From Owenia fusiformis (Eukaryota), in NCBI GenBank assembly GCA_903813345.2, contig CAIIXF020000001.1, positions 11,904,001 to 11,968,000 on the forward strand: a stretch of 64,000 nucleotides of DNA, in the 5' to 3' direction. Positions 31,742-60,044 of the stretch are shown here, in pieces; position 1 is the first letter of the stretch, and each line of letters starts with the position of its first letter. Under the pieces are notes generated by a model. That model was not told the origin of the DNA. It saw only the letters and a program-made list of their open reading frames with translations, and made no database searches. Made by a program: the position numbers and the translations under genes.

Positions 31742-34700
31742 TCAGTTTGACTGGCCATAAGCTTTTTTAAATTGCATATCCAAATAATCCAGTGCATTGA
31801 TTGGTTCATATTTATTTGACCCATCTAGACTCTTCACTATGGTGCTATTATCTGGTTGTATAAAGAATGCCATTGATTTGCGGGCGCATCTCCTTAGCTT
31901 TTCATCAGTAGGAACCACTACTCTATGTCTCTGGAAATACAAGTAGACAGTGTATTATGCATGCATTCTGTAACAGGTATTAAAACTGATACAATGCGTA
32001 ACAAAGGGTTTCAGAATTATACGTTAGTGGTATAGTTTTATAGCTACGGTATTCATCCATTTGTGAAGGAATTTCAAAAGTGATTTTAAAAGCATGAAAT
32101 ATAATGTGAGATCATCCCTTCCTAATATAAGTCTATAATGTAAATACTGACAATTATATAGATTGCATGAACAAGTATTTTAATTAATCGTCAAAAGCTA
32201 TGAATCTGTAGCATATTCATTAGCAAACTAATCAACAGAGTAAAGCATGAGAGTTCAGAAGAATACCTAGCTATCCTTCATAATACATTACCCCATTACT
32301 CATCACAAATTCCCCCTTATATTATACCATTGCATGTGAGGCATGTGTACCATCCCCACTATGTACATATCCCCACTATCCATCCCCACTAGGTAGAACC
32401 TCACATTTGAAAGTAGAGTATCAGAAGTCCACCTCTGCATCATATCACCAATGTTCACCAAGACTGTATCAACAACAGGAGTAGCAGAAACAAATGTCCC
32501 ATCCCTAGATGCAACCTGCAAAACAATACAGAAAGCAGAAACAAATGTCCCATCCCTAGATGCAACCTGCAAAACAATACAGTAAAGCAGAAACAAATGT
32601 CCCATCCCTAGATGCAACCTACAAAACAATACAGTAAAGCAGAAACAAATGTCCCATCCCTAGATGCAACCTGCAAAACAATACAGAAAAGCAGAAACAA
32701 ATGTCCCATCCCTAGATGCAACCTGCAAAACAATACAGTAAAGCAGAAACAAATGTCCCATCCCTAGATGCAACCTGCAAAACAATACAGAAAAGCAGAA
32801 ACAAATGTCCCATCCCTAGATGCAACCTACAAAACAATACAGTAAAGCAGAAACAAATGTCCCATCCCTAGATGCAACCTGCAAAACAATACAGAAAAGC
32901 AGAAACAAATGTCCCATCCCTAGATGCAACCTGCAAAACAATACAGTAAAGCAGAAACAAATGTCCCATCCCTAGATGCAACCTGCAAAACAATACAGAA
33001 AAGCAGAAACAAATGTCCCATCCCTAGATGCAACCTGCAAAACAATACAGTAAAGCAGAAACAAATGTCCCATCCCTAGATGCAACCTGCAAAACAATAC
33101 AGTAAAGCAGAAACAAATGTCCCATCCCTAGATGCAACCTGCAAAACAATACAGAAAGGCAGAAACAAATGTCCCATCCCTAGATGCAACCTGCAAAACA
33201 ATACAGAAAGGCAGAAACAAATGTCCCATCCCTAGATGCAACCTGCAAAACAATACAGTAAAGCAGAAACAAAAATTTGGGTTTCAAGTAATTATTGTCG
33301 TAAAAGTACAAGGAATTCCTTTTTGTTTTTTCTTCTTGGAAACCTTGAAGAAACTAAAAATGTAGTATATGAACAATGTATTACAGCAACATATCAATAT
33401 GCATTTTAAAAATCCTACTATTTCACGATCACGAGGGTCTCAAAAATTGAGTAATTTTTCACAAAGATTTTACTCTGAGCAAATGGAAAAAGGATAAATC
33501 ATTTTATATCTACATACATTAGAACATGTCTAATGTGAACACCACTGGGACTGACAAAAAGTGTTTCTGGTATTAAATCAGGTGTTCACACTTCAAGGTT
33601 TCTAAACAAATGTATGTGAGCAATGGGAGAAAACAAAATTGGAGCCAAAAAAGTGTTCACATTGAGTGGTTTTCGAATTATAGGGATAGGGGGCCCGAGG
33701 GGGGGTTGCTGTTTAGATATACAGGTTTCACTGTACCTCTAATCCTCCTATATCATCTTGAATTAGAAGTGTTATAGACCCATAGTCTGAATGCTCCCCC
33801 AATCTTAACTGGCCTGCTTCGATTTCTACAAATTCAAGAACATGCATTTGCATCCATTTGTTTCAGCTCAATAAAATCACTGACAAGTGGCTACAAGATA
33901 TAGTATTAGTTTGACCTGTGAAATTAACACTTAGACTGAAAGTACTTGTCCGTAACATGAATCACAGAAGTCTCCAAATCTATTTTGAAGCTGTTATACA
34001 TTTACCTTTATCATCTGGAACTGGGGGATAGTTTAGGAACCTAATACAGCTTGTGTTTTCTAGTGAACCAATTTTCGAATGATATTGGTCAAAATAGTTT
34101 CTTTCCTGAAATAAAAGAAACATTTTCAATATGTATATTCACAATTAATTACTTCTTAAATATTCACAGACAGATATGTTATTTGAATAAACACCAAAAC
34201 TTAAAACACCAAAACTTTAAAATCCTGTTACCCATTAATCTGTTAATGTAAAATGAATCTCAATTAGAGGAACATCTCTCAAAATGGATCAATTTGTACA
34301 TACCATTTTCATTCCCAATGCCATTATCTGAAGGACTCGTTTTCCCAATTTTTCACAACTTCTGAAAAGTGTCTCAAAATCACTGTAGAAATTAGGTAAT
34401 TCTTCCTTTGGTATAATCTGAAAATACAAGACTGTCTATAAAACAACGAGTTAAAAAGTTGTCATTATTTTCTATCAATTTCCTTCATGAAATTTTGAAA
34501 AATCCAAAAAATGGTAAATTAAATTGTCACAATAATTTATTAATTGGCCATAATATGAATAAATGCCAAAAGTCCCATCAGTTCAAAATGATAGTTGATA
34601 AATGACTGTACGAGGATTGACATTCAAAATTACCCCAGAGTATTATATTACTTTCCGACTTTATTTGGGACTTTTTGCAAATATTCACCTATCGTCCAAA

Positions 34701-35670
34701 TGATGTGAATATCGCAGCATTGTATTGGAAATTGATTTTTTCAATGATTTACTGTAAAAGTATAGAGTAAGGATATTGGAAATTTGTAGTACTCAAAGTG
34801 CGTCGTTTTATAACTCACCCTGTAACTCTTTCCGTAACGATCATTTCCCTATAGATACTTTTAACCAACCTCTTGTTTTAAAAAACATGCTTGGGGGATT
34901 TTTATTGATAAAACTGAAATAATTTAATTTAAAAGGGTTCAATTTACCTTTGGTGTTGTCCCATCATAAGGTATGAAGCTATATGTTTCTTTCAGATCTC
35001 CTGGTTGAGATGGGTTCAATCTAAATTAATTATAAACAAAATAACTTTAATGACCTAATAAAAAATATTGGAAATATATGGCTGAGAAAATCAAATTAAT
35101 TAATCTTTGGATGGACACCCAGGTATGTTCTTGATAAAAAAAAATATAGAAACAAAATTGAACTTACCGTTCGCCTTCCATAGGGGCATAGCCATAGTAC
35201 TCTCCTTTTGGAATGGCATATCGCATTTTGACTTCTTCAGGTAGGTCGAAGAATTTCTGGGATACATTGTATACATCACTTATCTAAAAAGGAATACTAG
35301 TAGTAAAAATAGATCTTGGATTTTATTCTTTTAAATAGCACTACGTTCTGAAGTAATAAAAAGACAACGTTTGTCGCTGAAATATTTGTTATAGGCAAAA
35401 TGGAATTAATTATTGGCAGTCCGGAGTCCCTCCCCCGTCCCTCTCATGGCTGCCTCCCTGGGGCTGCCCACAGTACATCTATCATAAGCTTGGCTTGATC
35501 ATTAGCACCAAAATCCATACTTGTGTCTTAGGAAGTCCATGTCCTTTCAAGTAGACAAACCCTACTGTCGTGAACGCTTTGTAGACGCTATCTGCAAGTT
35601 GCTGGAGTTCATCATCACCCACCGTATTCACATTTAGTCCATATGCAGAAAAGTCAACAATTGGGATCAT
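31742..35670 (-). CDS. 2-oxoglutarate/Fe(II)-dependent dioxygenase (DIOX_N + 2OG-FeII_Oxy, IPNS-like), ~313 aa
   Basis: Exons 35521-35670, 35168-35283, 34948-35020, 34304-34417, 34006-34105, 33737-33825, 32405-32515, 31742-31930 (942 nt). Motifs IPIVDFS, GFVYLKGHG, FFDLP, GDLKE, RFLNYPP, GEHSDYGSITLL (HxD), VNIGDMMQRWT, HRV, RKSMAFF (RxS). Confidence 0.93.
32484..33271 (-). repeat. 51/52-bp tandem array (~15 copies) of the exon 7 splice acceptor plus exon start
   Basis: Unit on the transcript strand: tttactgtattgttttgcag|GTTGCATCTAGGGATGGGACATTTGTTTCTGC; the last copy runs into the real exon. Confidence 0.95.
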
Positions 35671-38058: not shown

Positions 38059-39675
38059 GTTTGTGTGACCTTTATTGCATATTTATTAGTGGCAAAATAT
38101 GAACATGACTTTGGTCCACATTTGTAACGTGTCTGATTACCTCTTACGCAACTGCAAAGTTACTAACTTCTCAAATGCATTGTTCAGCTTGTCAAAAATT
38201 GACAAGGAAGAAATCAGGTCAGATTTATATGATCTTGAGTCTATTGACCTTAGAATATATACACGGAAATTAACTAATCGATGCTTTCAATGTTATGTAG
38301 ATGTGATTAAAATCATCTTCACAATGGGGAAGAAATTTCTGTTCAGTAAGTGTTTTCAGTCTGTCATGACAAGAGCTCAGAGTTGGAATCTTATCCTTGA
38401 CATTTCTGCATTTGCCATGTGGTTCATTGTCATCATTATGTCTCTATATTACAATAGTTGACTTGTAGAAGAGGCATTCCTGCCCAGATGATTTTTACAT
38501 TAAAAGTGGAGTCTGTGTCATGGTATTTCAAAAAAGTGTATCCATTGGACTCTACACTTGATAAAAATAACATTTTGACACAAAAATACTCCCCTCTTAT
38601 CTTTCACTTATCAGTAATATAGAAACTTCAGATCATAAATGCAATGGTTAATTTTTTGTCAAACCTGACAGAGAACATTACGTCTAATTTAACAATATTG
38701 CAAGAGGATAATAAGTCAATTTACAACAAATATATAATATAACCATGATCATGATTCACAATTGATTCTCAGGAAAGAAAATTATTGAGGTCATCTTTTT
38801 CTATTTAGTCCCTCTTTCGATATCTTCTCCCTGTAAAAAACAAATATTGTCTGGTCTCAAATGTATGGTAGTTTGTTGCTTCACAGTTTGCTGTTTGCTA
38901 ATTTATTGGAAGCGTTTTTAATATCTCCATTCTATAATTTATAATAGAGGTCTATCTGCAGATGTCATAAATCACATTGGAATCAACTGTGATAATTGGA
39001 GTTGATGGAGAATGCAATATTACACTTCTCACATGACTGTCAGGAGGGCCTGCCTAGAGGGAATATTTTCATGAGAATAGGCAAGATGTGATTTATCTCA
39101 AATGATATGCTTTCATTTGAAGCATCTGGATATCTATTTCGATTTAAATTTAACACAAACTAATTTCTATTGTTGCTTTTTAGCCATGACCTTATTGCCA
39201 TGACAACAATTTTTTATTCTTGATTTTATTCTCAATGCTTGGAAAAAATTAATGTTGTGCCAAATTGTTTTTCGACAGGTTATTGTTCACTAATATTTTT
39301 CATATGAGTACAAGCTCAGTCTTAAATTATGAAACTTTCAATTCACCTTTTACTGAATAATTTTGTCATTTATTCTTACTGCAAACTTTGAAAAGGAACA
39401 AACTACTGCAGTCTGACAATGCTTGGGTTTTTGGCATTTTAAGAAATCGGTCATCTTCATTAAAGTAGGTGCTACACCCATGTATCCCTTTCAGATCTCA
39501 ATAATAGGTGTTGGCTCAGCCTAACCATTTGTGCCCACTTGATAAAAATCCTGAAAAATTGGCATGTATTGATCAATTTGTGAAAATGACAATTTCTATA
39601 CAAATCTGAAACACAGCAAAGCTTTTGGTCTAAATTCTTTTTTTTTGTTCTGTAGGGATTCACAATACAAAGAAA

Positions 39676-42600
39676 ATGGCTGAAGAGCTGACTCATGATG
39701 AAAATTTGACCCCGGAACATCAATTGCTGGGTGATTTATTGAAGGATGCCGGATCTCCATCTATGTGCAACTTGACGTCTCAAACTGAAGGCACATCAAC
39801 ATATCAGTCTTGGTCACCATTCCTTACCTCTACCCAAACTGGACAGTTTGATTTTGGTCAAGGTACAGAGGCATCAGCTTGGGCAAATTTTCAGCTCCCC
39901 GATGAGAGTCCTCTTAATCTGCCTGGTGCACAATCCAGCAGACTCGGCTCTTATGAGGACTATATCGCATCATTAAGCCAGGCAGATTCTAACTCTGAAC
40001 ATGGCTCGGAAAGTGGTAACAACTTCTATGGCTTTTACCCTAGCACAATAGATGGCTTGGCATCTGGTATGGAAGCTAGTGCTGCCAATGGAAGGGATTT
40101 GTATGCGGAGGCTATGCAGCAGTATAACTGCTACAATACTCAATATGATCCGTTTGGGTCTTCGGCTGTACTTCAAGATCTCACTGATGCAACTACTAAA
40201 ACTCATAGCTCAGCTGCGAAACCTAAAACATATTCTGATGTTGCCAAAAACGCAGCAACCAAGCAACCAAAGATAGCCAGTGGTGGAGGTACTAAGATAC
40301 CTGATGGGGGTAGCAAAGCTGGCACTGGGGCTCCACCAATGATGAGGCCTGCAGCAATTCCCAGGCATTTCATTAAGCAGAAGAAACCACGTGGCTTTTT
40401 CTTTCCTAAAGCGAGACATACATCCATGAGTGAAGATCTACCAATCCCTACTGTGAAACCTGATTCTAAGTATGGACTTGATAGCTTCGATGACTTCCCT
40501 GTTACTGGCCCTGCCAAAGAGAGAGCTAAACTGACTAAGACACAGTCGGCCGAGGAGCTACCCATAAGTCGCAAAGGAAGCACTAGTAGTGTGAGTAGCA
40601 GCAGTGGGATAGAAGATATCATCACCCCAATAGTTAAGCCAACAACCAGTCCTGGGGAGGGAAACCCACAACCCGTATCACGGAAATCCAAACAGAAAGA
40701 ATCGGCCAGCAAGTCCAAGCAGCAGCAGCAGCAGCCAAGTAAGGTTTTCTTTGACCCTAGACGTATGTTCCCTGATCAAAGTACGAGAGGGGGATCTAGT
40801 AATGGCAAAGAAGAAAAGCATTCAATCCCAAATAACCAACACTCTAAGGCACCTGAAGATGGCCATATGTTGAATAATGGTAAACTGAACAGCAACTTGA
40901 TGAAATCCAATGGAAATGTAAAGAAGAACTCGCAGACATACATTAACAACGACCTCAGAAATAAAACAGACAACAAGAAGCAGACCAACACAGAGAGCAG
41001 GGGGTCACCATACAATGATAAGCCAGGAACTGGTATGAAGACAACTCACACTACCACTGGGGATGTACACAATAATAACGTACCAAAACCAGAGGCTGTC
41101 AAGAAGAAAAAGAAACAGAAAGGTCATGATTATATAGGTGAGTTCAATGTCTACTATTCATTTAACTAAAACTGCAAATTATGAAATCGCAGTGATTTAA
41201 TGTGGCAGTTAATTGCATCTCAACTGTGCACAATGTTGTACAAAACACCATTTGAAAATCAATTATGCCAATCTCCCTCTACTTCCCTCTCTAACTCTGC
41301 CATTTGCAGCCTAGCTTCTTATAGGTTTGTAGCAACAAAATCACTGGTTGATTAGCACATTTCTTTACACTTGGTACAAATAAATAGCTAGAGGGTTAAC
41401 ATTTCGAAATAAGGATATAGGTACCAGAAAATGTGTTTACGTCAGAGATGTTAATTTAAAAGTCACTTTGTGTTATAAAGCTAAATGTTTGCTTTGGTTA
41501 TCATTGAACAGTGTAGCGTACAGCTATTTTTAAACAGCATGGTTGCATTAGTGCATGTATCTTAAATTAATTATAACCCTTTAATCATATATCATATATC
41601 AGCTTTGTGATACATGTAAATATATCACATTTGTACAATATAGTTTACCGTTTATTCAGTTTACTGTACTAGGAATGCCATGCTGGATATTATTGAATAA
41701 ATTCTTAACAATCTGATTGTTACAGTGTTATAATTAAATAAATGGCTCTTGACTTAAAAAGATTTATAAAAGTTAAATTTTAACTATGTATACATGTCAT
41801 GTACCAGTATGTAGCTTTAATGTTACAACTCTTCAGTTTAGAAATAATTGTGCTCCCAAACATATCATTTACATAGAGGTTTTCAACAGAACTGGCTTTA
41901 TTAAATATTATTTTATTTGTCACATAATAACTTTAGTTATACAGGCTCACACATATTAAAAACTAGATTTCTCTAAATCTCAAAGTTGTTGATGTAATGT
42001 TTTTGAAGTACACCACTGCTTCACATTTCAAACATTACATTTGACCCATACAGAAAATTAGTAAAATCTCATCTGTGCATCCAGGTCAGCATCGGGTCGA
42101 ATTTGAAATAGAAGGTGATTTTAAAACAGCATTTGGTCAGTTTGAAGCAAGTTGAAAATGACGATTTTTACCCTATTTACTGAAATATTTACTGAAACGT
42201 TTATCGAGATTTAGCTGTAGGAATTTGTAGGGAATGTTTTCAGGATGTTTCACTTTATTCATAGCTCTTCAAACACAGAAACCTTTAATTTGACCTAGAT
42301 TTAGATGTTTGACCTTGACCATGATACAAATAATTTCCCAGCAAGTCTACCCCAGGTCCCTGTTATTAGCAGCATAGGGTTAATAGCTGAAACCTAGCTA
42401 GTAATATGAGGAAAGAGACAGAAGAATGAATAAATGATTAATTAAAGTAATATTTTTAAGAGGGCCTCCTCTTGCTAATAAGAGATACATCTATAATATA
42501 TGTAAAATGTAATGAATATATATGTATACTGTACAGTAGCTGTAATCAGTTAGTGGTATCCTACCACTGAGAAAATATAATCATTGGTCACAAAATAGTA

Positions 42601-45600
42601 GGTTAATAATCCAGTAGCCGACAGCCGAGAGTTGCATTCGCAAATACAAGCTTTGTGTCACAGATTCATTTCATGACAAAAATACCTGCAGTCAATACTG
42701 GCTAATGATAATATGAACAATTGATTTCTGTCTCTTCTTAAAGCTATGAGAGAATGTAAAGATTAGGAATCCATTTCTTAAACCTTCCATCGGGTCATGT
42801 TTATACTGATGTTATAAATCTGTACTTCTAATAATAAATTGTTATTTGCATTGCATTTGTATATTTGTTTGAAAGAAAGCCAATACAATTGTGAACTCAG
42901 AATGAAACCAAACATCCTAATTACATGGCTTTGCCAAATACAAGTATAATCTTGCTGTTGTATCAATGTAAATAGAAGAAGAAATATTAAGATTGTCCCC
43001 CAGCATTTAAACTATCATATGCTTTCCTATCTAGCTTTGAAATCTCTTTGAGGTCTCATTTCTACTGATTATCCCACCGAACGAAGTTCGAGGAGGATAT
43101 AGAAAAGCCATCCGTCCGTCCGTTCGTGTGTCCGGGCAATAACTCAAATACCGGTTGACGGATTTCATTCAATTTTATAGACTTATGCCTTATGGGTGAA
43201 GGACCTCTGCTCGATAAGGAATTTTCAATATGGCTACTAAATTCAAAATGGCGGCCATTTTTCAGAAAAAATATAATCTTTGTTTACTCAAATACTGGTG
43301 GATGGATTTGGTTCAAATGTTATATGCTGTTGCCCAGGTACAAAGGAGCCTTGCTGAAGAAGACATTTTCAAGATGGCCACCATATTTCAAAATGGCGGC
43401 CATTTTTTGTAAAAAAACGTTATCTTTGATAACTCAAGTACCATAGAATGGATTTGGATCAAATTTTATATGCTGTTGCCTGGGTACAAAGGAGCCTTGC
43501 TCAAGAAGACATTTTCAAGATGGCCACCATATTTCAAAATGCCGGCCATTTTTGTAAAAAAAGTTATCTTTGATAGCTCAAATACCATTGAATGGGTTTG
43601 GTTCAAATTTTACATGCTGATGTCTAGGGACATTGACCAAAGCTCTGTTCGAGAAGGGATTTTCAAGATGGCAGCTAAATTTCAAAATGGCCGCCATTTT
43701 TCATAAAAGAATGTAACCTTTGATAACTAAAGTACCAGTTGGCGGATTTGGATTAAATGTATATGCTGATGCCTTTGGACAAGAGAGCTCTGCTAAAGGA
43801 GAAATCTAAAGATGACAGCTGAATTTCAAAATGGCAACCATGTTTCATGAAAACACAATCTTTGATAATTCAAATACCAGTGGATGAATTTGGCTCAAAT
43901 TTTATATGGCCGCTGTTTACCAAAACATGTTTTGTTCGGTGGGATTTGCTACTCCGTGGAGTTGCTGTTTTTCTAGTTTTAATATTTTTGCATGTTTAAC
44001 CATAAAGACTTCTTTTTGCAAATAAGGTTTTACATTAATCCCATAAATTAAATAATTAAGTGACTTGTGTCAGTTGTCAGTATCATGAAATGGTTTCTTG
44101 CCCAACCAAAACACTATTGCCATCTATTTGGCAAAGGCGAATCATCTTTTTTTGAAATTTGCTTCATAAAAAGCAGCCTTACCATCTACCTACCCACTAA
44201 ACGTAAGCGATTTCACATAGAATTTGCTATAAATCACGAGCTACTGCCTAGAACAAGTACTTTCCTGAACCATTTTGAATTGCATATTTTTGGTTTTTCT
44301 ATGTACAAAACATTAAAACACAAGTGTGATAAATTACATTTATTTGTTGTGGCAAGGCAAGGGAATGGAGCAAGTGGCTGATTGGTATATTTATAAAACA
44401 TTAAAATGAGTGTATTAAATTGCAGGTATTTGTTGTGGCAAGGCAAGGGAATGGACCAAGTGGCTGATTGGTATATTTATAAAACATTAAAACGAGTGTA
44501 TTAAATTGCAGGTAGTTGTTGTGGCAAGGCAAGGGAATGGAGCAAGTGGCTGATTGGTATATTTATAAAACATTAAAACGAGTGTATTAGATCTAAATTG
44601 CAGGTAGTTGTTGTGGCAAGGCAAGGGAATGGAGCAAGTGGCTGATTGGTATATTTATAAAACATTAAAACGAGTGTATTAAATTGCAGGTATTTGTTGT
44701 GGCAAGGCAAGCGAATGGAGGAAGTGGCTGATTGGTATATTTATAAAACATTAAAATGAGTGTATTAAATTGCAGTTATTTGTTGTGGCAAGGCAAGGGA
44801 ATGGAGCAAGTGGCTGATTGGTATATTTATAAAAACATTAAAACGAGTGTATTAAATTGCAGGTAGTTGTGGCAAGGCAAGGGAATGGAGCAAGTGGCTG
44901 ATTGGTATATTTATAAAACATTAAAACGAGTGTATTAGATCTAAATTGCAGGTAGTTGTTGTGGCAAGGCAAGGGAATGGAGCAAGTGGCTGATTGGTAT
45001 ATTTATAAAACATTAAAACGAGTGTATTACATTGCAGGTATTTGTTGTGGCAAGGCAAGGGAATGGATCAGGTGGCTGATTGGTATATTTATAAAACATT
45101 AAAACGAGTGTATTAAATTGCAGGTAGTTGTTGTGGCAAGGCAAGAGAATGGAGCAAGTGGCTGATTGGTATATTTATAAAACATTAAAACGAGTGTATT
45201 GAATTGCAGGTAGTTGTTGTGGCAAGGCAAGAGAATGGAGCAAGTGGCTGATTGGTATATTTATAAAACATTAAAATGAGTGTATTGAATTGCAGGTAGT
45301 TGTTGTGGCAAGGCAAGGGAATGGAGCAAGTGGCTGATTGGTATATTTATAAAACATTAAAACGAGTGTATTAGATCTAAATTGCAGGTAGTTGTTGTGG
45401 CAAGGCAAGAGAATGGAGCAAGTGGCTGATTGGTATATTTATAAAACATTAAAACGAGTGTATTAAATTGCAGGTAGTTGTTGTGGCAAGGCAAGAGAAT
45501 GGAGCAAGTGGCTGATTGGTATATTTATAAAACATTAAAACGAGTGTATTAGATCTAAATTGCAGGTATTTGTTGTGGCAAGGCAAGAGAATGGAGCAAG

Positions 45601-48600
45601 TGGCTAATTGGTATATTTATAAAACATTAAAATGAGTGTATTGAATTGCAGGTAGTTGTTGTGGCAAGGCAAGAGAATGGAGCAAGTGGCTGATTGGTAT
45701 ATTTATAAAACATTAAAACAAGTGTATTAAATTGCAGGTAGTTGTTGTGGCAAGGCAAGGGAATGGATCAAGTGGCTGATTGGTATATTTATAAAACATT
45801 AAAACGAGTGTATTAGATCTAAATTGCAGGTAGTTGTTGTGGCAAGGCAAGGGAATGGAGCAAGTGGCTGATTGGTATATTTATAAAACATTAAAACGAG
45901 TGTATTAAATTGCAGGTATTTGTTGTGGCAAGGCAAGCGAATGGAGGAAGTGGCTGATTGGTATATTTATAAAACATTAAAATGAGTGTATTAAATTGCA
46001 GTTATTTGTTGTGGCAAGGCAAGGGAATGGAGCAAGTGGCTGATTGGTATATTTATAAAAACATTAAAACAAGTGTATTATTTGCAGGTAGTTGTGGCAA
46101 GGCAAGAGAATGGAGCAAGTGGCTGATTGGTATATTTATAAAACATTAAAATGAGTGTATTAAATTGCAGTTATTTGTTGTGGCAAGGCAAGGGAATGGA
46201 GCAAGTGGCTGATTGGTATATTTATAAAACATTAAAACGAGTGTATTAAATTGCAGGTATTTGTTGTGGCAAGGCAAGCGAATGGAGGAAGTGGCTGATT
46301 GGTATATTTATAAAACATTAAAATGAGTGTATTAAATTGCAGTTATTTGTTGTGGCAAGGCAAGGGAATGGAGCAAGTGACTGATTGGTATATTTATAAA
46401 AACATTAAAACGAGTGTATTGAATTGCAGGTAGTTGTGGCAAGGCAAGGGAATGGACCAAGTGGCTGATTGGTATATTTATAAAACATTAAAATGAGTGT
46501 ATTAAATTGCAGTTATTTGTTGTGGCAAGGCAAGGGAATGGAGCAAGTGGCTGATTGGTATATTTATAAAACATTAAAATGAGTGTATTAAATTGCAGGT
46601 AGTTGTGGCAAGGCAAGGGAATGGAACAAGTGGCTGATTGGTATATTTATAAAACATTAAAATGAGTGTATTAAATTGCAGGTAGTTGTGGCAAGGCAAG
46701 GGAATGGAACAAGTGGCTGATTGGTATATTTATAAAAACATTAAAATGAGTGTATTAAATTGCAGTTATTTGTTGTGGCAAGGCAAGGGAATGGAGCAAG
46801 TGGCTGATTGGTATATTTATAAAACATTAAAACAAGTGTATTAAATTGCAGGTAGTTGTGGCAAGGCAAGGGAATGGAGCAAGTGCCTGATTGGTATATT
46901 TATAAAACATTAAAACGAGTATATTAAATTGCAGGTATTTGTTGTGGCAAGGCAAGGGAATGGAGCAAGTGGCTGATTGGTATATTTATAAAACATCAAA
47001 ACGAGTATATTAAATTGCAGGTATTTGTTGTGGCAAGGCAAGGGAATGGAGCAAGTGGCTGATTGGTATATTTATAAAACATTAAAACGAGTGTATCGAA
47101 TTACATGTATTTGTTGTGGCAAGGCAAGGGAATTGACCAAGTGGCTGATAGGTATATTTATAAAACATTAAAAGGAGTGTATTAAATTGCAGGTATTTGT
47201 TGTGGCAAGGCAAGGGAATGGAGCAAGTGGCTGATTGGTATATTTATAAAACATTAAAACGAGTGTATTGAATTGATTGCAGGTAGGGGAAGATCACCTA
47301 ATTCCATCCAATTTTTTCTATTTTTCTTTTTATTGAAAAACACGGCGAAGATTATCAAAACCGCTTGAAAACTATATGAAACATCAATAAAACTAACATT
47401 ATTTGTGGGGTCTCGTTTCAAATCATCCCTGTTTGATTGGTTAATATCATAGAAAAGGTGGACAATTGCGTTTCCTAATCCCGTCCACCTGTCCTAATCC
47501 CGTCCACCAAACAGTCCTAATTCCAGCCAGCCAACAACCTAATGCCGTCCACGTGATTAATTACCGTGATTCTCAATAAGTTTACATCTATTACCCAATA
47601 TTTGTTCATTCCCTAACCATTTATACTATGGTATGTTACCCTACGGTGTTATAACTGAATGACTTATTCATATTTTTGTTACAGCGCAGCCAGAGTGGTG
47701 ATATATTCGTTATAGTATCTAAGTTTAGGAAACATTGTTCGGCGGTTGGGATTTCTCACTTGTAACAAATTGCCGGTGACATTTGGCTTGTTGTAATAAG
47801 GCCTACAATTTGTTAGATAACGTATTTAGCAAACATGTTGTCAGTTTATATTCCTTTAAGGATCAGATGATAAGGTCCCCGTAGTGTTAAAACCTGAGGC
47901 CCAGGAATACGTTAAAAATGTTTAAAATGTCCGCTAGTGTTCTGAGATGTTAATGCGTGGTGTATACATGTATATTATACTAGATTACTTACATGTATAA
48001 GAATAAGACTGATTTTTATAAGCTAAATGGATAATAATTCTTTTTATTAATGACAGTATACCCGGGCCTCAGGTTAAAACAATGTACGCCAATGCCAAGT
48101 GTTAACAAGCAAGGGTAAAAATTGAACAGGCCTACACCTACCTTAAGTTCTCAAGTCAAATTGTCAAACTCACAATGGGTTCACACTGCGACAGCATACT
48201 ATTTTCTCAAAGTTATGTATCATCGTATTACGAAATAATGGAATCTGACAATACTATAGTTGTATACCATACCTGTAGGTCATGTAGGTATCATGATGAT
48301 TAAAAATCGTAGTATCTGGAATATAGTTTTACTGCTGTGAAAAGTGCTCGTCTATAAAGCAATCCTTTTTATTGGAAAACAAAGTCAGGTTGAGTTCTGT
48401 CAAGATTTCCAAAATCGTCGTTCAATAATGATTTAAATGTCAAAAAACATTTGATCGTTTTAAGCACACAATTATAGTTGCAATAGATGCATTTAATTTA
48501 TTACCATTTGGATCTGGGACACTGATATTTCCCAATGGTTCCATTAACAAATATATTTAATAGTCCAACAATCTGACTATACGATACCATACACTGACAC

Positions 48601-51600
48601 GTAATCAGTGATTGAAAGTGCATAATAGGCCCAGTATATAAACGTTGAAGCTAGCGTTGCGTACTAGGCTTTTGACCCAGGCTACTAAATAGGTTTCTGT
48701 TTGATTTAAGCTTTTTTAGCAAATCTGCTTTTAAATTTCTTCTCTTTATTTAGTTTCCTTTTTTCTTTCCGGAATATGGTAACCAATGTGAACTATGTAT
48801 TGTATAATCATTTTCGTATGGAATAAATCAATGATTAGCATATGTTTATGTACATGATGTAGTTCAATTTATACTAAAATAAAGTTACCAAGTCGCTGTA
48901 TTTAACTTTATATTGTAGTGTAAACCAATGCAAAGCTGAAATCAATGGACCTCATGCGTGTACGCGTTACGTACCCCATGATTAAGCAAGTTGGAATAAG
49001 GCATCGTATACTAATGACATTTTCAGATATTCAAAGTACACATGTAAATGTTAATACGTAATTAACAATCTGACTATACGATCACGGATTGTTGACTTAG
49101 GTATAGCATATCTTGCAGCCGTTTACCTCAAAGTCAACTGGCCTTCTCTGTCGACTTTCACGGCCTCTTCCAGTGTTTCCCGTCAATATTTTGGCATTGT
49201 GACCTAAAAATAATAAATGTCCACGTACATATCGTCTTTTACACATGTGTTTTAATTCAGTTTTTAAATATAATTCAACTTCGACAATCGTCTTCAAGTA
49301 CACAGTGCAATGAAAAGAAGAATCTCCAAAAAGGGGAATCCCCAAATTTTCTAATTGAACTTAATTCCTAATTCCGGTCAATCTTTTCAGACAAATTGTC
49401 AGGGTTTTAATTAATTTTTAAGTTTATTATGTCGATCTTTTAAAAAAATTAATATTCAATATCAAATTAAAATGAACTTCATGTAGTTTTCCATTCCAGA
49501 TTTGCATAATATATCATATAAAGACGGAGACATAAAATACTCACATTAAAATATGGCGCCAATTGGAAAGAAACACCAAGATCAACAATGAATTATAATC
49601 GATCAACCTTTTACGTAGATATAGATTCTAAAATGAAACTAGGTATCAACATGTGTCAATTTATTCATTAATACTAATACAAATATTCGTATATATCAAT
49701 ATATCGTATGGACGATATTAGGCAGTGTTGGCTGTCATTAGGTTGTGTTGGACGCCATTATAAGTTATTGAATAATTTGAAGTGCAATACAGGATATATT
49801 CTGTTCGAGAAATTCCGTATTGGAACGAGACGAAGTCGAGTGCCAATACAGAATATCGAGACAGAATATATCCTGTATTGCACTTCGAATCATTCAATAA
49901 CGTTTTTATCGTGTTATCCTCTGTATTGCTACTGAGATTGTCTCCTCCGTACCAATATTTTCTGTATTGCGACGGAGATGATCAACGCGGACAATCTCAG
50001 TAGCAATACAGATTGGTACAGCACAAGAACTGACCAATCAGAGGGCTTCATTTTACAGATCATGCGATAATAGGTTGTGTTGGATGCCATTAGGTACTGG
50101 ACGGAATTAGGTGATTCTACCCTAGTTGTTTTGGCAAGGCAAGGGAATGGAGCAAGTGGCTGATTGTTATATTTATAAAACATTAAAACGAGTGTATTAA
50201 ATTGCAGGTAGAGTCCAAGTGGCTGATAGGTATATTTATAAAACATTAAAACGAGTGTATTAAATTGCAGGTATTTGTTGTGGCAAGACAAGAGAATGGA
50301 GCAAGTGGCTGATTGGTGAGATTTGGAGCCTATTGTGGATGGTACTGCAGTTGCTGTTCACATGTGTTTGCTTACTGTAAGTAACAACTCTATGTACAGA
50401 GTGTCCCGAAAGTATAGGACCTCCCTAGATAGACATAAACCAATGTCTGCATGGTATGTGTCTACCTAAGGGGTCCCATACTTTTGGGACAGCCTGTACA
50501 TTAGGAAAAAGCATATAATCATCCTTCTCAGTCTCAGATGTTGCTAGATTATCGGGGGTTCCATTGTCTCACAATAATACAGTGAAACCTGTATATCTGA
50601 ACACCTCTCTAATCCGAACACTTCTCAATGTGAACACTTTTTCTCGGTCCCAGATTAGTTTAAACTTCCATTGACCTACATGTTGAAAAAACACGAAATC
50701 TGAACACTTGTTCCTTGAAACACGTTTATTTGCTCCCAGAGGTGTTCGGATTAGTCAGGTTTTACTCTCAGTAATGCTAAATATCAGTCATGTAACATAG
50801 TAATGTGAATCAAGGTGAAGTGAGAATGTATGCAATTAGTAAGTTGACATTTACTTTTAATGAACTGTGATTTATTGACAGCGTTTAATATTGATTAATT
50901 CCTTCTTCATTAGGGATGATGTCTGTAATTCCCAACAGTTGTTCAAGAAGAAAAGTTAATTCATAAAGGGGGATTGATTTCTATTGTGAAGAGTTAATGA
51001 TTTTTTAATTTTCAAGTGTTTTTTCTATAGTATATGAGTTTATTACATTACTTAACAAAAGTATCCAAATAATCGATTTCCAAAGTGAAAAATGTTAGTG
51101 GCAATTTTTAAACCTGCACATCGCTCCAAAACGCAATATGTTGACATATATTGTTTTTACATTTTCAAGCTCTAATATAAAGTTTATGTAAATAAAAATT
51201 GTTTTTTTCTGCGTAATATCAAAGAACAATCATTTAGTTAAAAAAAATAAAAAGGCGAATGCGGGATTCGAACCCGGGCCTCCCGCGTGCTCAGCGAGGA
51301 TTCTACCGCTACACCACCGTATTAGTATGGATGATGTAAGTAATTAAACGCTACTTATTTTGAATGCTATGATTCGGAAGTGACGTCACGTTCTTCATTT
51401 AGAAACCTTTCCAAAATCATATCGCCGGCTCCGATCGAAGCAAATTCAATGAAAAATCTTTGAAATGACACATTTATCGTAAGTATTTCTACACAAGATT
51501 TGCCCCATTTGTTCATCATTCTATAATCTTTCATTAAGCTCAAAATGATAAAGTTCACCCCCGAAACAACCCAAGATTGCGTTTCGGAGCGTAGTCCAGC

Positions 51601-54600
51601 TTTAAGTGAAAGGCCAATTTTGTTGGGAGGGGGTTCATTTTCCACAACTTTTGGGATTTCATAGATCCTATGTTATTTTGTGTTATTCATAATACCTTCA
51701 AACACTAACCTAGTTCTATAAGAGGCTGGAAGTTAATGAACTGTGTTGTAAGATGTCTCCCTGGTCAATATCAATTCATTAAACTCATTAGCCTCAAACT
51801 CATTTTATTTCATCAAGGTTGTTTGAACATTGACTGATCCTTTTTCGATTGTTGTTGTTTGATGTAGATAAGTGGTGACATATTGTTAAAGACTCCAACT
51901 TTTTTGTGGATGGTTTAACGTCCGGTGACTGGTGGTGGTTGACATCTGTAACAAATGGCAGGTTGTAAAATTTTGCATGTTAATGCCATGTTATATTATT
52001 GAGGAATCAATTTGAATTTTATTATACTTTCAGATTTGTGGTGTTGAAGAGGGCATGCAGTACAGTTGTAGCGTTTATATGTTCCAAATTTAACACACAT
52101 TTTAAATGGGGCAAGTCTAACGAGAACTATTTTGACGCTTCGGGTCCGGGAAAATATCGTGGACATCGTGGATTAGAAGAAAATATAGTCCTACCTTCTA
52201 CAGGAGATGAAGCTATGAAACGACTCTTAGCTTGTAAAGGAAAAGACCCTTATAGGTGAGATATGAGAATATGTGATACATTATCACTTTGCTGTTCATA
52301 TTTACATTTTAAAGCACTATTTCCAACTATTAAAATCTGAAAGAGTGTAGAAATGTAGTTTACTTTGTAATTTTTAGGGGTGAGACGAGTCGAAAAAATC
52401 CGATTCGAGTCGAATCCGATTCGAGTCAGAAAATGACGATTCGAGTTTCGAATCCGTTTCGAGTCAGATAAAGTGCGAACAACATCGCTTTTGACCGTTC
52501 GTATTTTTAATGCGTCAATGCTGGAAAGCCGGAAATATAAACAAACACAATTCGTTGTAAGTTTATTCTGATTTTATTACATATATTCTTTCATTTATGT
52601 GTACATACAATATAATAATTTAATACAAGCATATCCAAGTCATTGAAACTTATATATTCAACGCAATATCGAGTAAAAACATGCATATTGACAGTATTTT
52701 TCTGAATTTTTTTATTTTTTCGAATTTTTTTCTCAACTCGAAAATGATTCGATTCATCAACTTCGACTCGATTCGACTCGACTCGAAGCCCCAAACCCGC
52801 GAGTCCTCGACTCATCGGGTTGTCGTCTCACCCCTAGTAATTTTGTTTCACCACACTCTGTGTTTAACTTGTGATTTTGTTTCAGTATACTTGGTGTTAA
52901 ACTCGTGATTTTGTTTTTAGCATACTTGGTATTAAAATTGTGATTTTGTTTTGGCATACTTGGTGTTAAACTTGTAATTTTGTCTCAGTATTCTCAGTGT
53001 TAAACTTATGATTTTGTTATGTCACATATGTTAAACTTGTGATTTTGTTTCAGTATTCTTTGTTTTAAACTTGTGATTTTTCAGTATTCTTGGTGTTTCA
53101 ATTTTCATGATGTTTAAATTGTGATATTGTGTAACTTATGATTTTGTTCCAGTATTCTTGTTGTTAAACATGTGATTTTGTTTCAGTATTCTTGGTGTTA
53201 AACTTGATGCAACTGATGATGAAATTAGGAAATACTACCGTAAACAAGCTGTTCTAGTCCATCCAGACAAGGTAACATTTCAACTACACTCTGTTAAGCA
53301 TGATAAAAGGCAAGAAGTTTAGTTAGAAATAAAAGAGTTATCTCATGAATGGGACCCTTACATGGCTCCTAAAAGGTAGAAGACACTAAATGGTGTGACA
53401 CTATAAGCTGAATTTTGTCCACATAGAGCATGTGCACAATACTAAAGACATGTAAAATTGAACTGTCAAAATAATAGAAATTACTCACCAGCTCGCCTCT
53501 ACCGGAAGTTATGATACGTTATGGTGTAACTACAGTAATTAATTTTAAAATATTGAAAAAATCAACAACATTCAATTTCTAGGGTGTACAACCATTTTCG
53601 AGCGAATTTGCCGATATAATAACAATATTTTTGAGTTTCCCTAGGCTATATGTAAACTTCATCAATACACAGTATATTCAACATAGGTTTTGCTTCTCGA
53701 TTTTTAAATATCACTATGCAAAGACAGGGACTCATTTTAGGTAAAATCATTGCTTCACCAATGAAAATTAAAGGGAACGTTAGCTCACAAAATAAATAAA
53801 TCCATTACAATGTTAAGTATATGATTTGAAAGATTGTCTGGATTATATGTGTGATCGATTGATGCATAAACAAACATATTCATTTCAACTTGCAGACCTC
53901 CATTCTGGCTCATGTATAGGCCTAAGACGCCATATTGCCTTATGTATTGTACTGCCCATGCGTGCATATTTAATGCGTGACGTCACATCGACAGAGATCA
54001 GCGATCAAGTTTGACTAAAAAATTAAAAGGTCCACACTTAACAGCACAAAAATGATATCAATGATCGCCTATTTCATATCAAATAAGTGTAGGATGTAAG
54101 GTTTAAAATTTTTCATGTTATTTAGTATTTACAGAAGCAGAGCTTGTAAAGAAACCAAGTTTTAAATTTCGATTTTGACTGTTGACAAAAATAAAGAAAA
54201 GAGAGAAAGAGGCGACTTGTTAGAAACAATGACATGAAATTGTGAATAAAAAAGATATTATTGTGGGTTTTATTTTTTGAGAGTTCATCAAATACACTCA
54301 TGTGTATTAATTTAAATATGCATTGTAAAACCTCTCAGTTCTACCAAGCATTATAAAAACTGATCGAAATGGCTTCGTTTTTAAAGTATAAAAAACACTA
54401 CCCTACCCGGAAGTAGTATAACATGTATATTGAAACCATGTGCAAACTGTAAATCACGTGAATTGGCTGATGCAATCAGGATGTGACTAGTACAAAGTAA
54501 CTATGATGCAATCAGGATATGACTTGTGCAAAATAATTGGCTTCACCTAGAATTCGCGATCTTTGCTCTTTAGCATAATATGAAGACATGTTTTGTGTTT

Positions 54601-57600: not shown

Positions 57601-60044
57601 TATTCCTTTTTTCATTAAATAAATTTTGGCTGCTTTGTGAAAAAAAAATGAAAACTTGTTATTTTCAGAAGGCAAAAGATGACAACTATTTGGGAGTAAA
57701 TGGCTATTGAACACAGAGAACAATATCTGTTAAAACCGTGTTCTCTCATTTTTCAGGGAGATCTCTGGGCTGAGAGTACTATGTTAGGCTTTTACTGGCA
57801 CTACTACGCCTGCATGGAGGGTGGTGTCTATGACATCACAGAGTGGGCGTCATGTCAAAGGGAAGGATTCAAACACCTACAGGCCAATGCTCATCACGTC
57901 ATGTATAGGATAGCCACTAACGCTAGTCGACATCACAACCAGGCACGATCAGGGTAAAGGAGTTTGAATCATTTTGCTTTGTCATTCTTGATGTACTGTG
58001 ATGTACTTGTTTTTAAGTGATTTTTCATCATGATGAAGACTAGTCTCAGTGTGGAGAACGAAGTTCATCAGTCTACTGCATGTTACGCCTGCTTTGGACA
58101 ATTTTGATATTTTTACATATTGTAGATTTATATGTCATCTTTTGAATATCCATAATTTAATTTGTGTGTTATTTCAATATTTTTCATGAAAAAATTATTT
58201 GCGCAGTAGACTGATGAACTTCGATCTCCAAACCGAGACCTGTCTTTTATTGAATCGGTCTGCTGCATGTTACGCCTGCTTCAGACAATTTCTATATTTT
58301 TACATATTTTAGATTTAAATGTCCTCTTTTGAATATTCTTAATTTAATTTGGGTAAGATTTCTAGATTTTTCGAGAAAAATATTAGCGCAGTAGACTGTT
58401 CTCCAAACCATGACTTGCCTTTTTCATTATTATCCCATCGAAACGAAGTTCGGAGGGATATAGGGAACGCCTCTGTCCGTCCGTCTGTCCGTCCGTCCGT
58501 CCGTCTGTCCGTCCGTCCGTCCGTCCGTACGTACGTCCGTCCGTCCGTCCGGGCAATAACTCAAATACCGTTGGCCCGATTTTGTTTATATTTTGTACAC
58601 ATATACCCTATGGGGGTAGAACTTCTGCTCGAAAGCCGATTTTCAAAATGGCCACTCATTTCAAAATGGCGGCCATTTTAGTGCCGAATTTACAGTAATT
58701 TAGGTGCAATATGTAAAACTGTAATAGCAATATGTTTTAGATGTAAAAAAATTATATAGGACATTAATAAAGCTAGAAATGTAGATATTAAAGAAGCACA
58801 TGGCAGCCATCTTGAAAAATGGCGGCCTTTACTCGTTATTTTACGATTTTTGCTGTAACTCGAAAAGTAGTGGAGTGGTTTTGTTCATATTTGGTATGTG
58901 AATACTATAAACATTGCTCACTGTCTAAAGACACTTTTGGTAGAAGGTGGCCATTTTATAAAATGGCCGCCATTTTGAAAAATGGCCGCCATTTTAACCT
59001 ATTTTACTATAACTCGAAAAGTAGTGAAGCGATTTTGTTCATATTTGGTATGTGAATACTATAAGGATGGCACACTGTCTAATGACACTTTTGGTAGAAG
59101 GCGGCCATTTTTCAAAATGGTCGCCATTTTAACGTATTTTACTATAACTCGAAAAGTAGTGAAGCGATTTTGTTCATATTTGGTATGTGAATACTAACAG
59201 CATGACACACTATCCTATGACACTTTTAGTAGAAGGTGGCCATTTTGAAAATTTTTTTGAAAAATGGCCGCCATTTTAATGTATTTTACAATAATTCGAA
59301 AAGTAGTGAAGCGATTTTGTTCATATTTGGTATGTGAATACTGTAAGCATGGCACACTGTCTAATGACACTTTTGGTAGAAGGCGGCCATTTTTGCTATA
59401 TACTTTGTTTGTAAAAATGCCATCCATGGCTGTTCGATGGGATTCGCTACGCTTTGGCGTTGCCGTTGTTCTGGTTATTTATTCGGTTGAACCATTGAAT
59501 TTTTTGTTGATCTTTTTGATCTTTATTAGATTAGAAATGAACGACTTTTCTTGTCTTGAAATGACAGAATAAATAACTATGGTACCCATTTTAAATTAGA
59601 TTTTAAGTTGCCTTGTTAATGTTGAAATAAGGAGTTCAATATCAATAGATGGCAACTTTGAATTTGCACTCAATAATTTCAATATTTCTTGCATAATCTC
59701 AAAAATACAATGCAATACTAAAACAGCTTAACTTGATGTTGAATTTGTAAGAGCATAGGCAGGAGAACTTAACTTTGTTACTATTCTAGTCTAATTTGGA
59801 ATAACTTATGCACAAATCAGTCCATATGCATATCAGTCAAAATTTTTTCTTTTTCAGTTTGAAGAAGCAAGGGGAAGAACTGGAAGACTTTATCAACCAT
59901 TTGTTTCACAATTCTCGGCCAACGGAAGGCGCTACCCAACAACCACCTGATGCTCACGGTTACCCTGGCAACCAACAAACAACACAACCATCTTGGAATT
60001 CCTCTAGTAAAAATAAGAAACGTGGTAAAAAGAAGCGACATTAG
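39676..60044 (+). CDS. DNAJC14: DnaJ homolog subfamily C member 14 (J domain + Jiv90 domain), ~851 aa
   Basis: Exons 39676-41137, 50271-50376, 52034-52255, 53187-53271, 55857-55925, 56256-56315, 56765-56812, 57049-57168, 57757-57953, 59858-60044 (2556 nt, phase-consistent). Long low-complexity N-terminus, hydrophobic segment, DPYSILGV..YRKQAVLVHPDK..AEEAFK J domain, CDHC/CDRC..H.AKEGDLWAE..YDITEWASCQ Jiv90 domain. Confidence 0.95.
43068..43977 (-). mobile_element. Helentron/HINE-like element (family A), reverse orientation
   Basis: Reverse complement of both termini of 5097-5834; (ccgt)n at 43112-43122; internal aaaatggcggccattt tandem units. Confidence 0.72.
44330..50315 (+). repeat. 86-bp tandem array (~34 copies to 47285, about 2 more after 50123) of a DNAJC14 splice acceptor plus first 45 nt of the exon
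   Basis: Unit gtatatttataaaacattaaaacgagtgtattaaattgcag|GTATTTGTTGTGGCAAGGCAAGGGAATGGAGCAAGTGGCTGATTG; final copy is the real exon at 50271; interrupted by an insertion at 47286-50122. Confidence 0.95.
47286..50122. mobile_element. 2.8-kb non-autonomous TA-targeting DNA transposon inserted in the 86-bp array
   Basis: TIRs ggggaagatcacctaattccatcca / tggacggaattaggtgattctaccc; TA duplication splitting gcaggta|gttgtt; subterminal cctaatcccgtcca repeats; no transposase ORF seen. Confidence 0.88.
50397..50496. mobile_element. ~100-bp Tc1/mariner-type MITE
   Basis: ta|cagagtgtcccgaaagtataggacc ... ggtcccatacttttgggacagcctg|ta. Confidence 0.7.
51254..51323 (-). pseudogene. tRNA-Gly-derived pseudogene or tRNA-like repeat
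   Basis: GGTGGTGTAGCGGTAGAATCCTCGC-TGAGCAC-GCGGGAGGCCCGGGTTCGAATCCCG closely follows eukaryotic tRNA-Gly(GCC) with A/B boxes and a downstream T run, but the acceptor stem does not pair and the anticodon loop is altered. Confidence 0.7.
52375..52836. mobile_element. hAT-type MITE
   Basis: taggggtgagacga / tcgtctcacccccta-type TIRs; 8-bp TSD gtaatttt; subterminal gattcgagtc repeats. Confidence 0.9.
52837..53205 (+). repeat. Degenerate ~33-35-bp tandem array (~10 copies) of the J-domain exon acceptor plus exon start
   Basis: Unit tgtgattttgtttcag|TATTCTTGGTGTTAAACT; the last copy is the real exon at 53187. Confidence 0.88.
53288..55331. mobile_element. 2-kb element with ~270-bp near-perfect TIRs
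   Basis: actctgttaagcatgataaaaggcaag...ttttaaaatattgaaaaaatc (53288-53563) is the reverse complement of ~55056-55331; no TSD or ORF recognised. Confidence 0.85.
58429..59476 (-). mobile_element. Helentron/HINE-like element (family B), reverse orientation
   Basis: Reverse complement of 14318-15975 without the nested MITE; long (ccgt)n microsatellite at 58475-58550. Confidence 0.78.

Follow-up and report, generated by a model that had tools for sequence, protein, structure and literature searches.

Intron 1 of a DNAJC14-like gene in the annelid Owenia fusiformis contains about 35 tandem copies of its own 3' splice site, each consisting of the end of the intron joined to the head of exon 2, and in the RNA that we sampled only the true copy of this acceptor is used. 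The gene lies in a stretch of 64,000 nucleotides (NCBI GenBank assembly GCA_903813345.2, contig CAIIXF020000001.1, positions 11,904,001 to 11,968,000 of the forward strand), which we call the window; all positions below are those of the window, and a slash within a sequence marks a junction. We refer to the set of copies as array A. A preliminary description of the window, made from its sequence, had suggested that the copies might act as recursive splice sites or as frame-preserving cassette exons, functions that our data do not support. Based on the anatomy of the array, on RNA samples in which splicing goes to the true acceptor alone, and on copies that show no coding constraint, we conclude that array A is probably a neutral intronic minisatellite of the type called 'mirage' in lancelets, with the true acceptor as the only one in use.

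Anatomy of array A

The features of the gene and of its first intron are as follows. Exon boundaries of annotated genes were located by tblastn and then fixed by exact-translation checks.

39676..41137, + strand: coding part of exon 1 of the DNAJC14-like gene, with ATG at 39676 and donor TAG/GTGAGT at 41137/41138 (open reading frame (ORF), translation, junction reads)
41138..50270, + strand: intron 1, 9133 nt, GT..AG, holding array A, a transposon-like insert and a 144-bp repeat block (junction reads)
44300..47285, + strand: main block of array A, 34 complete units of 83-92 bp and the left part of a 35th unit
47286..50123, unstranded: transposon-like insert, 2838 bp, flanked by TA at 47284-47285 and 50124-50125; its inverted ends measure 27 nt and are 85% complementary
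50126..50230, + strand: remnant of array A, made up of a 63-bp unit with an internal deletion and, before it, the right part of the interrupted unit
50231..50376, + strand: true unit, the final 40 nt of intron 1 and exon 2
50271-50376, + strand: exon 2, 106 nt, donor ACT/GTAAGT, encoding GICCGKTREWSKWLIGEIWSLLWMVLQLLFTCVCL; joints 41137>50271 and 50376>52034
52034..52255, + strand: exon 3 (junction reads, tblastn)
53187..53271, + strand: exon 4, start of the J domain, SILGVKLDATDDEIRKYYRKQAVLVHPDK; joint 52255>53187, exact-translation check

Nine introns of the DNAJC14-like gene were placed by tblastn and exact translation. The ORF at 39676-41136 matches residues 1-487 at 100% identity in P0001, an O. 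fusiformis protein of 851 aa with DnaJ and Jiv90 domains, and exon 1 ends in ...ATATAG/gtgagt at 41137.

Tandem Repeats Finder (TRF) placed array A at 44300-47275, with a period of 86, 34.4 copies, 92% matches and a score of 4935, and found a remnant at 50153-50273; it also gave a period of 264 for the array. Each unit joins 40-41 nt from the end of intron 1 (...ttaaattgcag) to a copy of the head of exon 2 (45 or 42 nt), and the following unit starts G/TATATTT. The preliminary description had seen 41 nt of intron and 45 nt of exon in each unit, which we confirm, except that the homology to exon 2 is actually 45-47 nt long, reaching +47 because GGT is common to both sides of the breakpoint. Its tandem array ran from 44330 to 50376; the array holds good for 44300-47285 and for the remnant, but 47286-50123 is the transposon-like insert. 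Unit 35 (47239) is broken after GCAGGTA, and the truncated unit at 50168 is 63 bp long with an acceptor-like cag/GTAGAG at 50207/50208. By TRF and by reading of the sequence, the units of decoy acceptor plus exon head are real: there are 34 complete ones, and the remnants.

The signals from which the preliminary description argued can likewise all be seen, namely the AG/GT junction, the GT after each unit, the multiple-of-three length, and the ATAG at the end of exon 1. The acceptor AG is kept in 32 of the 34 complete units and lost in 2; 26 of the 34 read AG/GT (GTATTT or GTAGTT), and 6 read AG/TT. The exon-like part is 45 nt long in 28/34 units and 42 nt long in 6/34, and is thus a multiple of three in 34/34. 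The 42-nt form, which is the sole length variant of the exon-like part, has dropped one TGT of TGTTGT, as expected of a slippage product. Thirty-three of the 34 units have no in-frame stop, the exception being unit 46303 (TGG>TGA), and the exon-like part is followed by TTG/GTATAT in 33/34 units and by TAG/GTATAT in 1/34.

The complete units are 84-98% identical to the true unit, and their mean pairwise identity is 0.924. Identical units return at lags 4 and 14, and three-unit blocks recur within the array; 5 units carry a 6-bp insertion and 6 carry a 3-bp deletion. The units least similar to the true unit are the first, at the 5' edge (84%), and the second-to-last complete one (89.5%). The last complete unit is 96.5% identical to it, so the pattern of divergent edges is clear at the 5' edge only. 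A 32-nt probe for the exon 2 acceptor boundary found 28 extra copies in intron 1 (≤6 mismatches).

One explanation of this structure is that the array, or its copy number, was produced by mis-assembly of a shorter repeat. Two contig sets, X10 and X13, were mapped to the region 39500-53400, and the X13 contigs, which come from short reads, scarcely cover array A, with a summed depth of 0-15.6 compared to 27.8 on the flanking unique sequence. X13 was marked 'RNA?', but one of its contigs (2470 nt) passes from exon 1 into intron 1 with no splice and with even depth, so X13 reads as genomic DNA. Contigs made from short reads are expected to fail on an array of this kind, and the array has structured variation–the 6-bp insertion, the 3-bp deletion and the three-unit blocks–that would not be expected from collapse or expansion errors. 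A transposon with a target-site duplication also sits within one unit. A published O. fusiformis assembly, which may be the one that holds the window, used PacBio reads with an N50 of 25.75-30.75 kb (PMC9977687). We regard mis-assembly as highly improbable.

Only the true acceptor is used in the sampled RNA

We read 6-12% of each of the raw RNA-seq runs X22 and X24, both from one study, and mapped these reads to the region 39500-53400. The direct junction 41137>50271 was found in 63 reads with 43 start places in X22 and in 20 reads with 14 start places in X24; it is listed as 41135>50269 with a cut of +2 and GT..AG ends, and skips 9133 nt. The next two junctions, 50376>52034 and 52255>53187, had 94 and 111 reads in X22 and 33 and 37 in X24, respectively. 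All three junctions are carried by a spliced contig of 3221 nt in X10.

No joint into array A was present among the 15 joints listed. Mean depth over the array, in six bins covering 44140-46923, was 0-0.11 in X22 and 0-0.24 in X24, which corresponds to no more than roughly 51 and 176 aligned bases, compared to depths of 45-73 and 19-29 on exon 1. In these mRNA-dominated libraries at most 1-2 reads touch the array, and among the joints listed there is none from 41137 to an AG/GT of the array. Unique sequence of intron 1 (41356-41819) had a depth of 0.31 in X22 and 0 in X24. From the contrast between 0.31 on the intron and 45-73 on the exon we estimate that the libraries consist of about 99.5% mature mRNA, with about 0.5% pre-mRNA signal. 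Such libraries can exclude common cassette inclusion and intron retention; transient recursive intermediates may escape them. The preliminary description had named the direct junction alone, with no intermediates, as the outcome that would refute its reading and mark the array as a neutral minisatellite, and in the sampled RNA this is what was found among the joints listed.

If the units were cassette exons, they would be included in some tissue or stage and would add the Cys/Trp-rich peptide G(I/S)CCGKAREWSKWLI before the membrane segment. Their reading frames suit this idea, because every complete unit is a multiple of three and all but one are free of stops, with AG before and GT after. However, depth on array A is essentially nil, and the direct junction is the only one seen in the 83 junction reads and the X10 contig, with no inclusion. 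The annotated protein P0001 (...GHDYIGICCGKTREWSKWLIGEIW...) contains the motif GICCGKTREWSKWLI in a single copy, not the extra peptide units that had been envisaged, and P0001 is the sole member of its 90%-identity cluster. Our search for P0001 covered proteins of up to 853 aa, and a longer isoform would still be expected to fall within this cluster. Further points against cassette exons are that the exon-like part is conserved no better than the intron part, with 10 missense and 1 nonsense changes to 3 synonymous ones; that the donor-like site is weak; that the pseudo-intron between neighbouring units is just 41 nt long; and that the other two boundary arrays in the window (described below) are not frame-preserving. 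We see very little chance that the units are cassette exons.

A related possibility is that the copies are regulatory decoys, which would bind U2AF/U2 or exon-definition complexes unproductively and so slow the removal of intron 1 or promote its retention. About 34 acceptors match the true one over 41 nt upstream, and the available text of two papers shows that a 'decoy exon' concept has been proposed in vertebrates (PMC6097662, PMC7373989). There is, however, no sign of retention in the depth of unique intron 1 sequence relative to exon 1 in either run, and array A has no conservation signal and is split by a transposon. This role, too, we judge to be most improbable. Cassette use and intron retention are both contradicted by the sampled reads at the level of a few per cent.

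Two observations concern the RNA data themselves. X10 was provisionally marked 'DNA?' and contains the spliced 3221-nt transcript contig. Exon 1 shows allelic variation: a 3-nt deletion at 40718 is present in 34/92 reads of X22 and 3/30 of X24, and there are several single-nucleotide polymorphisms at intermediate frequency in 39690-40674.

Coding constraint and strength of splice signals

We aligned 32 of the units, leaving out the two most degenerate. Variable columns make up 10/46 of the exon-derived part and 7/40 of the intron-derived part. By hand count, the exon-like part has undergone 3 synonymous, 10 missense and 1 nonsense change and 1 in-frame deletion. Judged from these counts, the exon-like part shows no coding constraint, and its pattern is the one that neutral drift produces.

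To compare the donor-like sites we calculated duplex energies with the U1 5' end, using the sequence that we take it to have; this is a crude measure. The donors in use gave -10.6 kcal/mol (exon 1, TAG/GTGAGT), -7.0 (exon 2, ACT/GTAAGT) and -9.8 (exon 3, AG/GTGAGA), whereas the decoy donor TTG/GTATAT gave -4.2 kcal/mol. Splicing of exon 1 to a decoy would regenerate TAG/GTATTT or TAG/GTAGTT, which gave -5.7 and -6.2 kcal/mol, respectively, and match CAG/GTRAGT at 6/9 positions. The context of the decoy acceptors is the same as that of the true acceptor, with 9/22 pyrimidines at -25 to -4.

Exon 2 itself contains a TTG/GTGAGA (50313-50321, at 50315) where the homology to the array ends (+45), and its energy of -8.1 kcal/mol is on a par with the donors in use. 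We considered whether it is a used donor, and found no joint from that site among the joints listed.

These values bear on recursive splicing, in which exon 1 would be joined to a decoy AG, regenerating a TAG/GTATTT or TAG/GTAGTT donor that is spliced again, to a subsequent unit or to exon 2, so that the 9.1-kb intron would leave stepwise with no trace in the mRNA. AG/GT is present in 26/34 complete units and in both remnants, and each unit has a GT downstream, as demanded by the model of recursive-splicing exons (RS-exons) in the available text of PMC8605326. Libraries dominated by mature mRNA would make the intermediates nearly invisible. On the other hand, no joint from 41137 to the array is present among the joints listed, and the depth on array A is almost nil. 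The regenerated donors are weak, at -5.7 and -6.2 compared to -7.0 to -10.6 kcal/mol for the donors in use, and so lack the strength seen at ratchet points in Drosophila, where regenerated donors tend to be strong according to the same text (PMC8605326). The AG/GT does not need to have evolved for this purpose, since exon 2 itself opens with GTATTT and the motif is inherited from the exon; moreover, 6 units have AG/TT, and array B (below) has no GT after its AG. Recursive splicing in intron 1 is unlikely because the regenerated donors are weak, and taking all of the evidence together we give it only a slim chance.

Two further boundary arrays in the window

Two other introns in the window contain arrays of the same design.

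52840..53186, + strand: array B, 8 degenerate 34-bp decoys abutting the exon 4 acceptor of the DNAJC14-like gene (53186/53187)
32516..33273, - strand: array C, 14 decoys of a 52-bp unit preceding exon 7 in a gene for a 2OG-Fe(II) oxygenase
32405..32515, - strand: true exon 7 of the 2OG oxygenase, VASRDGTFVSATPVVDTVLVNIGDMMQRWTSDTLLSN (Pfam 2OG-FeII_Oxy on the ORF; exact-translation check)

TRF reported array B at 52840-53206 with a period of 34, 10.9 copies and 71% matches. Its unit consists of 12 nt of intron end, attttgtttcag, and about 22 nt of the head of exon 4; CAG is kept in 5/8 decoys and TAG is present in 1/8, and a 32-mer probe found 5 extra copies (≤6 mismatches). Array C (TRF 32483-33273, period 52, 15.2 copies, 97% matches) has a unit of 20 nt of intron end and 32 nt of the head of exon 7. 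AG is present in 14/14 decoys, the exon-like part is identical in 14/14, and the probe found 14 extra copies. The annotated O. fusiformis protein P0014 reads ...IGGLE/VASRDG...LLSN/RHRVV, so that the boundaries of exon 7 at array C are given by sequence and protein together. Because identity among units differs–97% in array C, which is young, 92% in array A and 71-80% in array B–the three arrays must have arisen at different times.

To see how common such structures are, we made a census of the 30 introns of the three annotated genes in the window (14 in GMP synthase, 7 in the oxygenase, 9 in the DNAJC14-like gene), using boundary 32-mers and allowing ≤6 mismatches. Extra copies of the boundary were found within its own intron for 3/30 acceptors (28, 14 and 5 copies) and, with the same probes and threshold, for 0/30 donors. 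When 12 arrays were placed at random, the probability of at least 3 falling on acceptors was 0.008, or 0.049 if donors were counted too. With the array that had brought us to the region set aside, P = 0.06 for at least 2 of the other 11 arrays, and with a post hoc restriction to the 6 arrays outside dispersed repeat families the values were P = 8e-5 and 0.002. The enrichment of arrays at acceptors is therefore suggestive only; it depends on the null model and is not robust. Against it, 61/317 of the sampled intronic 32-mers are repeated elsewhere in their own intron, which shows local duplication to be a common event here. The presence in the window of two more boundary arrays of other ages points to a mutational process rather than to a function specific to one gene.

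Origin of the array and choice of the true acceptor

We infer an origin of array A at the DNA level, and neutral evolution since then. The founding event would have been a tandem duplication of about 86 bp across the intron-1/exon-2 boundary, comprising about 41 nt of intron and 45-47 nt of exon, with 1-3 nt of microhomology at the breakpoint. Unequal exchange or slippage would then have amplified the unit to about 35 copies; the three-unit blocks and the TRF period of 264 support unequal exchange. Later a transposon would have landed in one of the units close to the array's 3' end, followed by an internal deletion in the next unit. Judged by its sequence, the insert at 47286-50123 is a candidate non-autonomous DNA-transposon-like element that landed inside a unit of array A. 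We also considered an RNA-mediated origin of the array, by back-splicing or through a lariat, which we rejected because the 41 nt of intron adjoin the exon head in genomic order.

The 3'-most copy is the only one contiguous with the rest of exon 2 and, in the sampled RNA, the only acceptor used; on this model the 34 AG-bearing decoys leave with intron 1. From -41 to +45 the decoys do not differ from the true site, so the choice between them must depend on sequence beyond +45. All that remains beyond that point is 61 nt of exon 2 and its GTAAGT, and we therefore propose that exon definition is the discriminator: the true site would be picked by virtue of a 106-nt exon with a perfect GTAAGT donor, and a decoy would offer a 45-nt pseudo-exon with a weak GTATAT and only 41 nt to the next AG. 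As a functional element, array A probably has no consequence for the gene.

Several points weigh against the interpretation of array A as a neutral minisatellite with a single acceptor in use. The units, all of them multiples of three and 33/34 of them open, are somewhat more orderly than expected. Because the exon-like parts of arrays B and C are about 22 and 32 nt long, we think that the multiple-of-three length is probably coincidental. The 41137>50271 junction has fewer reads than the next two, about 0.6x those of the next, a deficit that may reflect 3' bias and the many possible placements of reads whose overlap with exon 2 is <45 nt. Sampling is thin, consisting of two runs of one study at 6-12% each and one contig set, and with 83 junction reads the upper bound on an alternative isoform is still a few per cent. 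Another 152 joints and 1290 loose ends exist besides the joints listed, and single reads into array A could be among them. The role of exon definition, too, is one that we infer.

Other repeats and neighbouring genes

The insert within array A has subterminal short repeats at 47473-47552 and 49709-49760. Its right-hand part (49708-50171) is repetitive at very high copy number, with a depth of 272 in RNA reads and a summed contig depth of 109364 in X13, and holds additional nested inverted repeats. Tandem blocks of 127-147 bp are present at 5242-5754, 14398-14679, 43139-43908 and 58848-59394 and have a common AAAATGGCGGCCA-like motif; as they occur in introns of different genes, they represent a dispersed repeat family. 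Reads are abundant at 42748-44139, mainly sense to the gene and with loose ends, and probably derive from other copies of the repeat. Tandem duplications of 133-134 bp at 7363-7654 and 29034-29316 are reverse complements of each other and are therefore another dispersed element, present in both orientations.

The neighbouring genes are GMP synthase (2729-14010, - strand, 15 exons, P0016, 687 aa) and the 2OG-Fe(II) oxygenase (31745-35670, - strand, 8 exons, P0014, 313 aa). There is a leucine-rich repeat (LRR)-like ORF at 56-280 of the window, and no Pfam matches were found between 14.5 and 31 kb.

Relationship to known systems

The original paper on the Adh3 mirage is reportedly that of Canestro et al. 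2002. As far as the available text of two papers on lancelets goes (PMC3087553, PMC3902484), mirages are tandem repeats lying over intron-exon boundaries, in which many copies retain AG/GT and splicing is undisturbed; their length varies among haplotypes, units at the boundary escape homogenisation, and their hosts are Adh3, troponin C, the globins BflGb6/BflGb9, and PGBD5. Array A is similar in that its unit spans one intron-exon boundary, splicing is undisturbed, AG/GT is present in many but not all copies, and units have been homogenised within the array, with a divergent unit at the 5' edge. It differs in that its host is an annelid, not a cephalochordate, and in having about 35 copies, compared to 3 and 6 units in two BflGb6 haplotypes, the only figures found in the same text (PMC3087553, PMC3902484). 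All three arrays in the window are on the acceptor side, whereas lancelet mirages are described there on both sides. Array A is thus a boundary-spanning 'mirage' minisatellite, a known kind of element, and is notable for its copy number, its host phylum, and its two companions within 64 kb. In the literature that we searched, 'mirage' in the sense of a boundary minisatellite appears in the lancelet papers only, and in none on annelids.

The available text of these papers also discusses mirages as raw material for intron gain, in Rogers' sense (PMC3087553, PMC3902484). The preliminary description had placed array A in the same context, as a tandem duplication of an AGGT-containing segment, and this is fair, although the copies lie within an existing intron of 9.1 kb and so have not created a new one. 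We found no intron of the Rogers model, which would run from the GT of one copy to the AG of the next within a former exon. Splicing starts from the exon 1 donor at 41137, which lies 3.1 kb upstream of array A, and all of the copies are inside the intron that it begins.

A counterpart on the donor side is known from humans. In the available part of the report on the 37-bp variable number tandem repeat (VNTR) in intron 7 of F7, the first element lies over the exon 7/IVS7 boundary and the pseudo-sites are normally silent; it was presented as a natural model of splice-site choice, and the use of the authentic, most upstream donor was explained by 5'-to-3' scanning (PMC1557585). The F7 VNTR and array A both multiply a splice site identical to the authentic one, and in both the copies are silent. 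They differ in that F7 multiplies a donor, with the authentic site most upstream, whereas array A multiplies an acceptor, with the authentic site most downstream, and for this reason the scanning rule reported for F7 cannot explain array A.

Array A also has features of the recursive splice sites and RS-exons of Drosophila and vertebrates as described in the available text on them (10.1101/006163, PMC8605326): an intronic AG/GT and a short cryptic exon that is followed by another donor. Unlike recursive sites, it has no junction reads among the joints listed, its regenerated donors are weak, its sequence is derived from an exon head, and its intron is 9.1 kb long. A survey of recursive splicing in Drosophila gives, in its available text, an average size of 17,953 bp, which is ambiguous between intron and segment (10.1101/006163).

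Tandem arrays can have effects on transcripts. In the available text of De Grassi and Ciccarelli 2009 (PMC2812944), human tandem arrays and minisatellite expansion in genes can carry splice signals and alter gene structure. Such human cases, as far as that text describes them, change the transcript or the protein, whereas array A leaves the transcript unchanged. Arrays of this kind also carry a warning for annotation, because boundary arrays give spurious protein matches: tblastn put the exon-2 peptide at 22 decoy positions, and exon-chaining was led astray by arrays B and C. Zhuo et al. 2007 reportedly described cases in which tandem arrays created or modified human introns and exons.

Array A extends mirage minisatellites from cephalochordates to a spiralian. 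It is a natural experiment in the choice of 3' splice sites, in which about 34 acceptors, each the same as the true one from 41 nt upstream to 45 nt downstream, are transcribed before it and are still ignored, and it mirrors, on the acceptor side, the donor VNTR of F7. More tentatively, and with considerable doubt, we raise the idea that boundary minisatellites reflect a mutational process, biased towards acceptors and still under way in a slowly evolving annelid genome, and are not an oddity of lancelets. If this were true, and an excess at 3' splice sites extended genome-wide, it would imply either a duplication mechanism linked to splice sites or a strong asymmetry in tolerance. The arrays, with their 5 to 35 identical decoy acceptors, would then form a natural series in which to study the choice of the true 3' splice site, and would allow the duplication route to intron gain to be tested as it happens.

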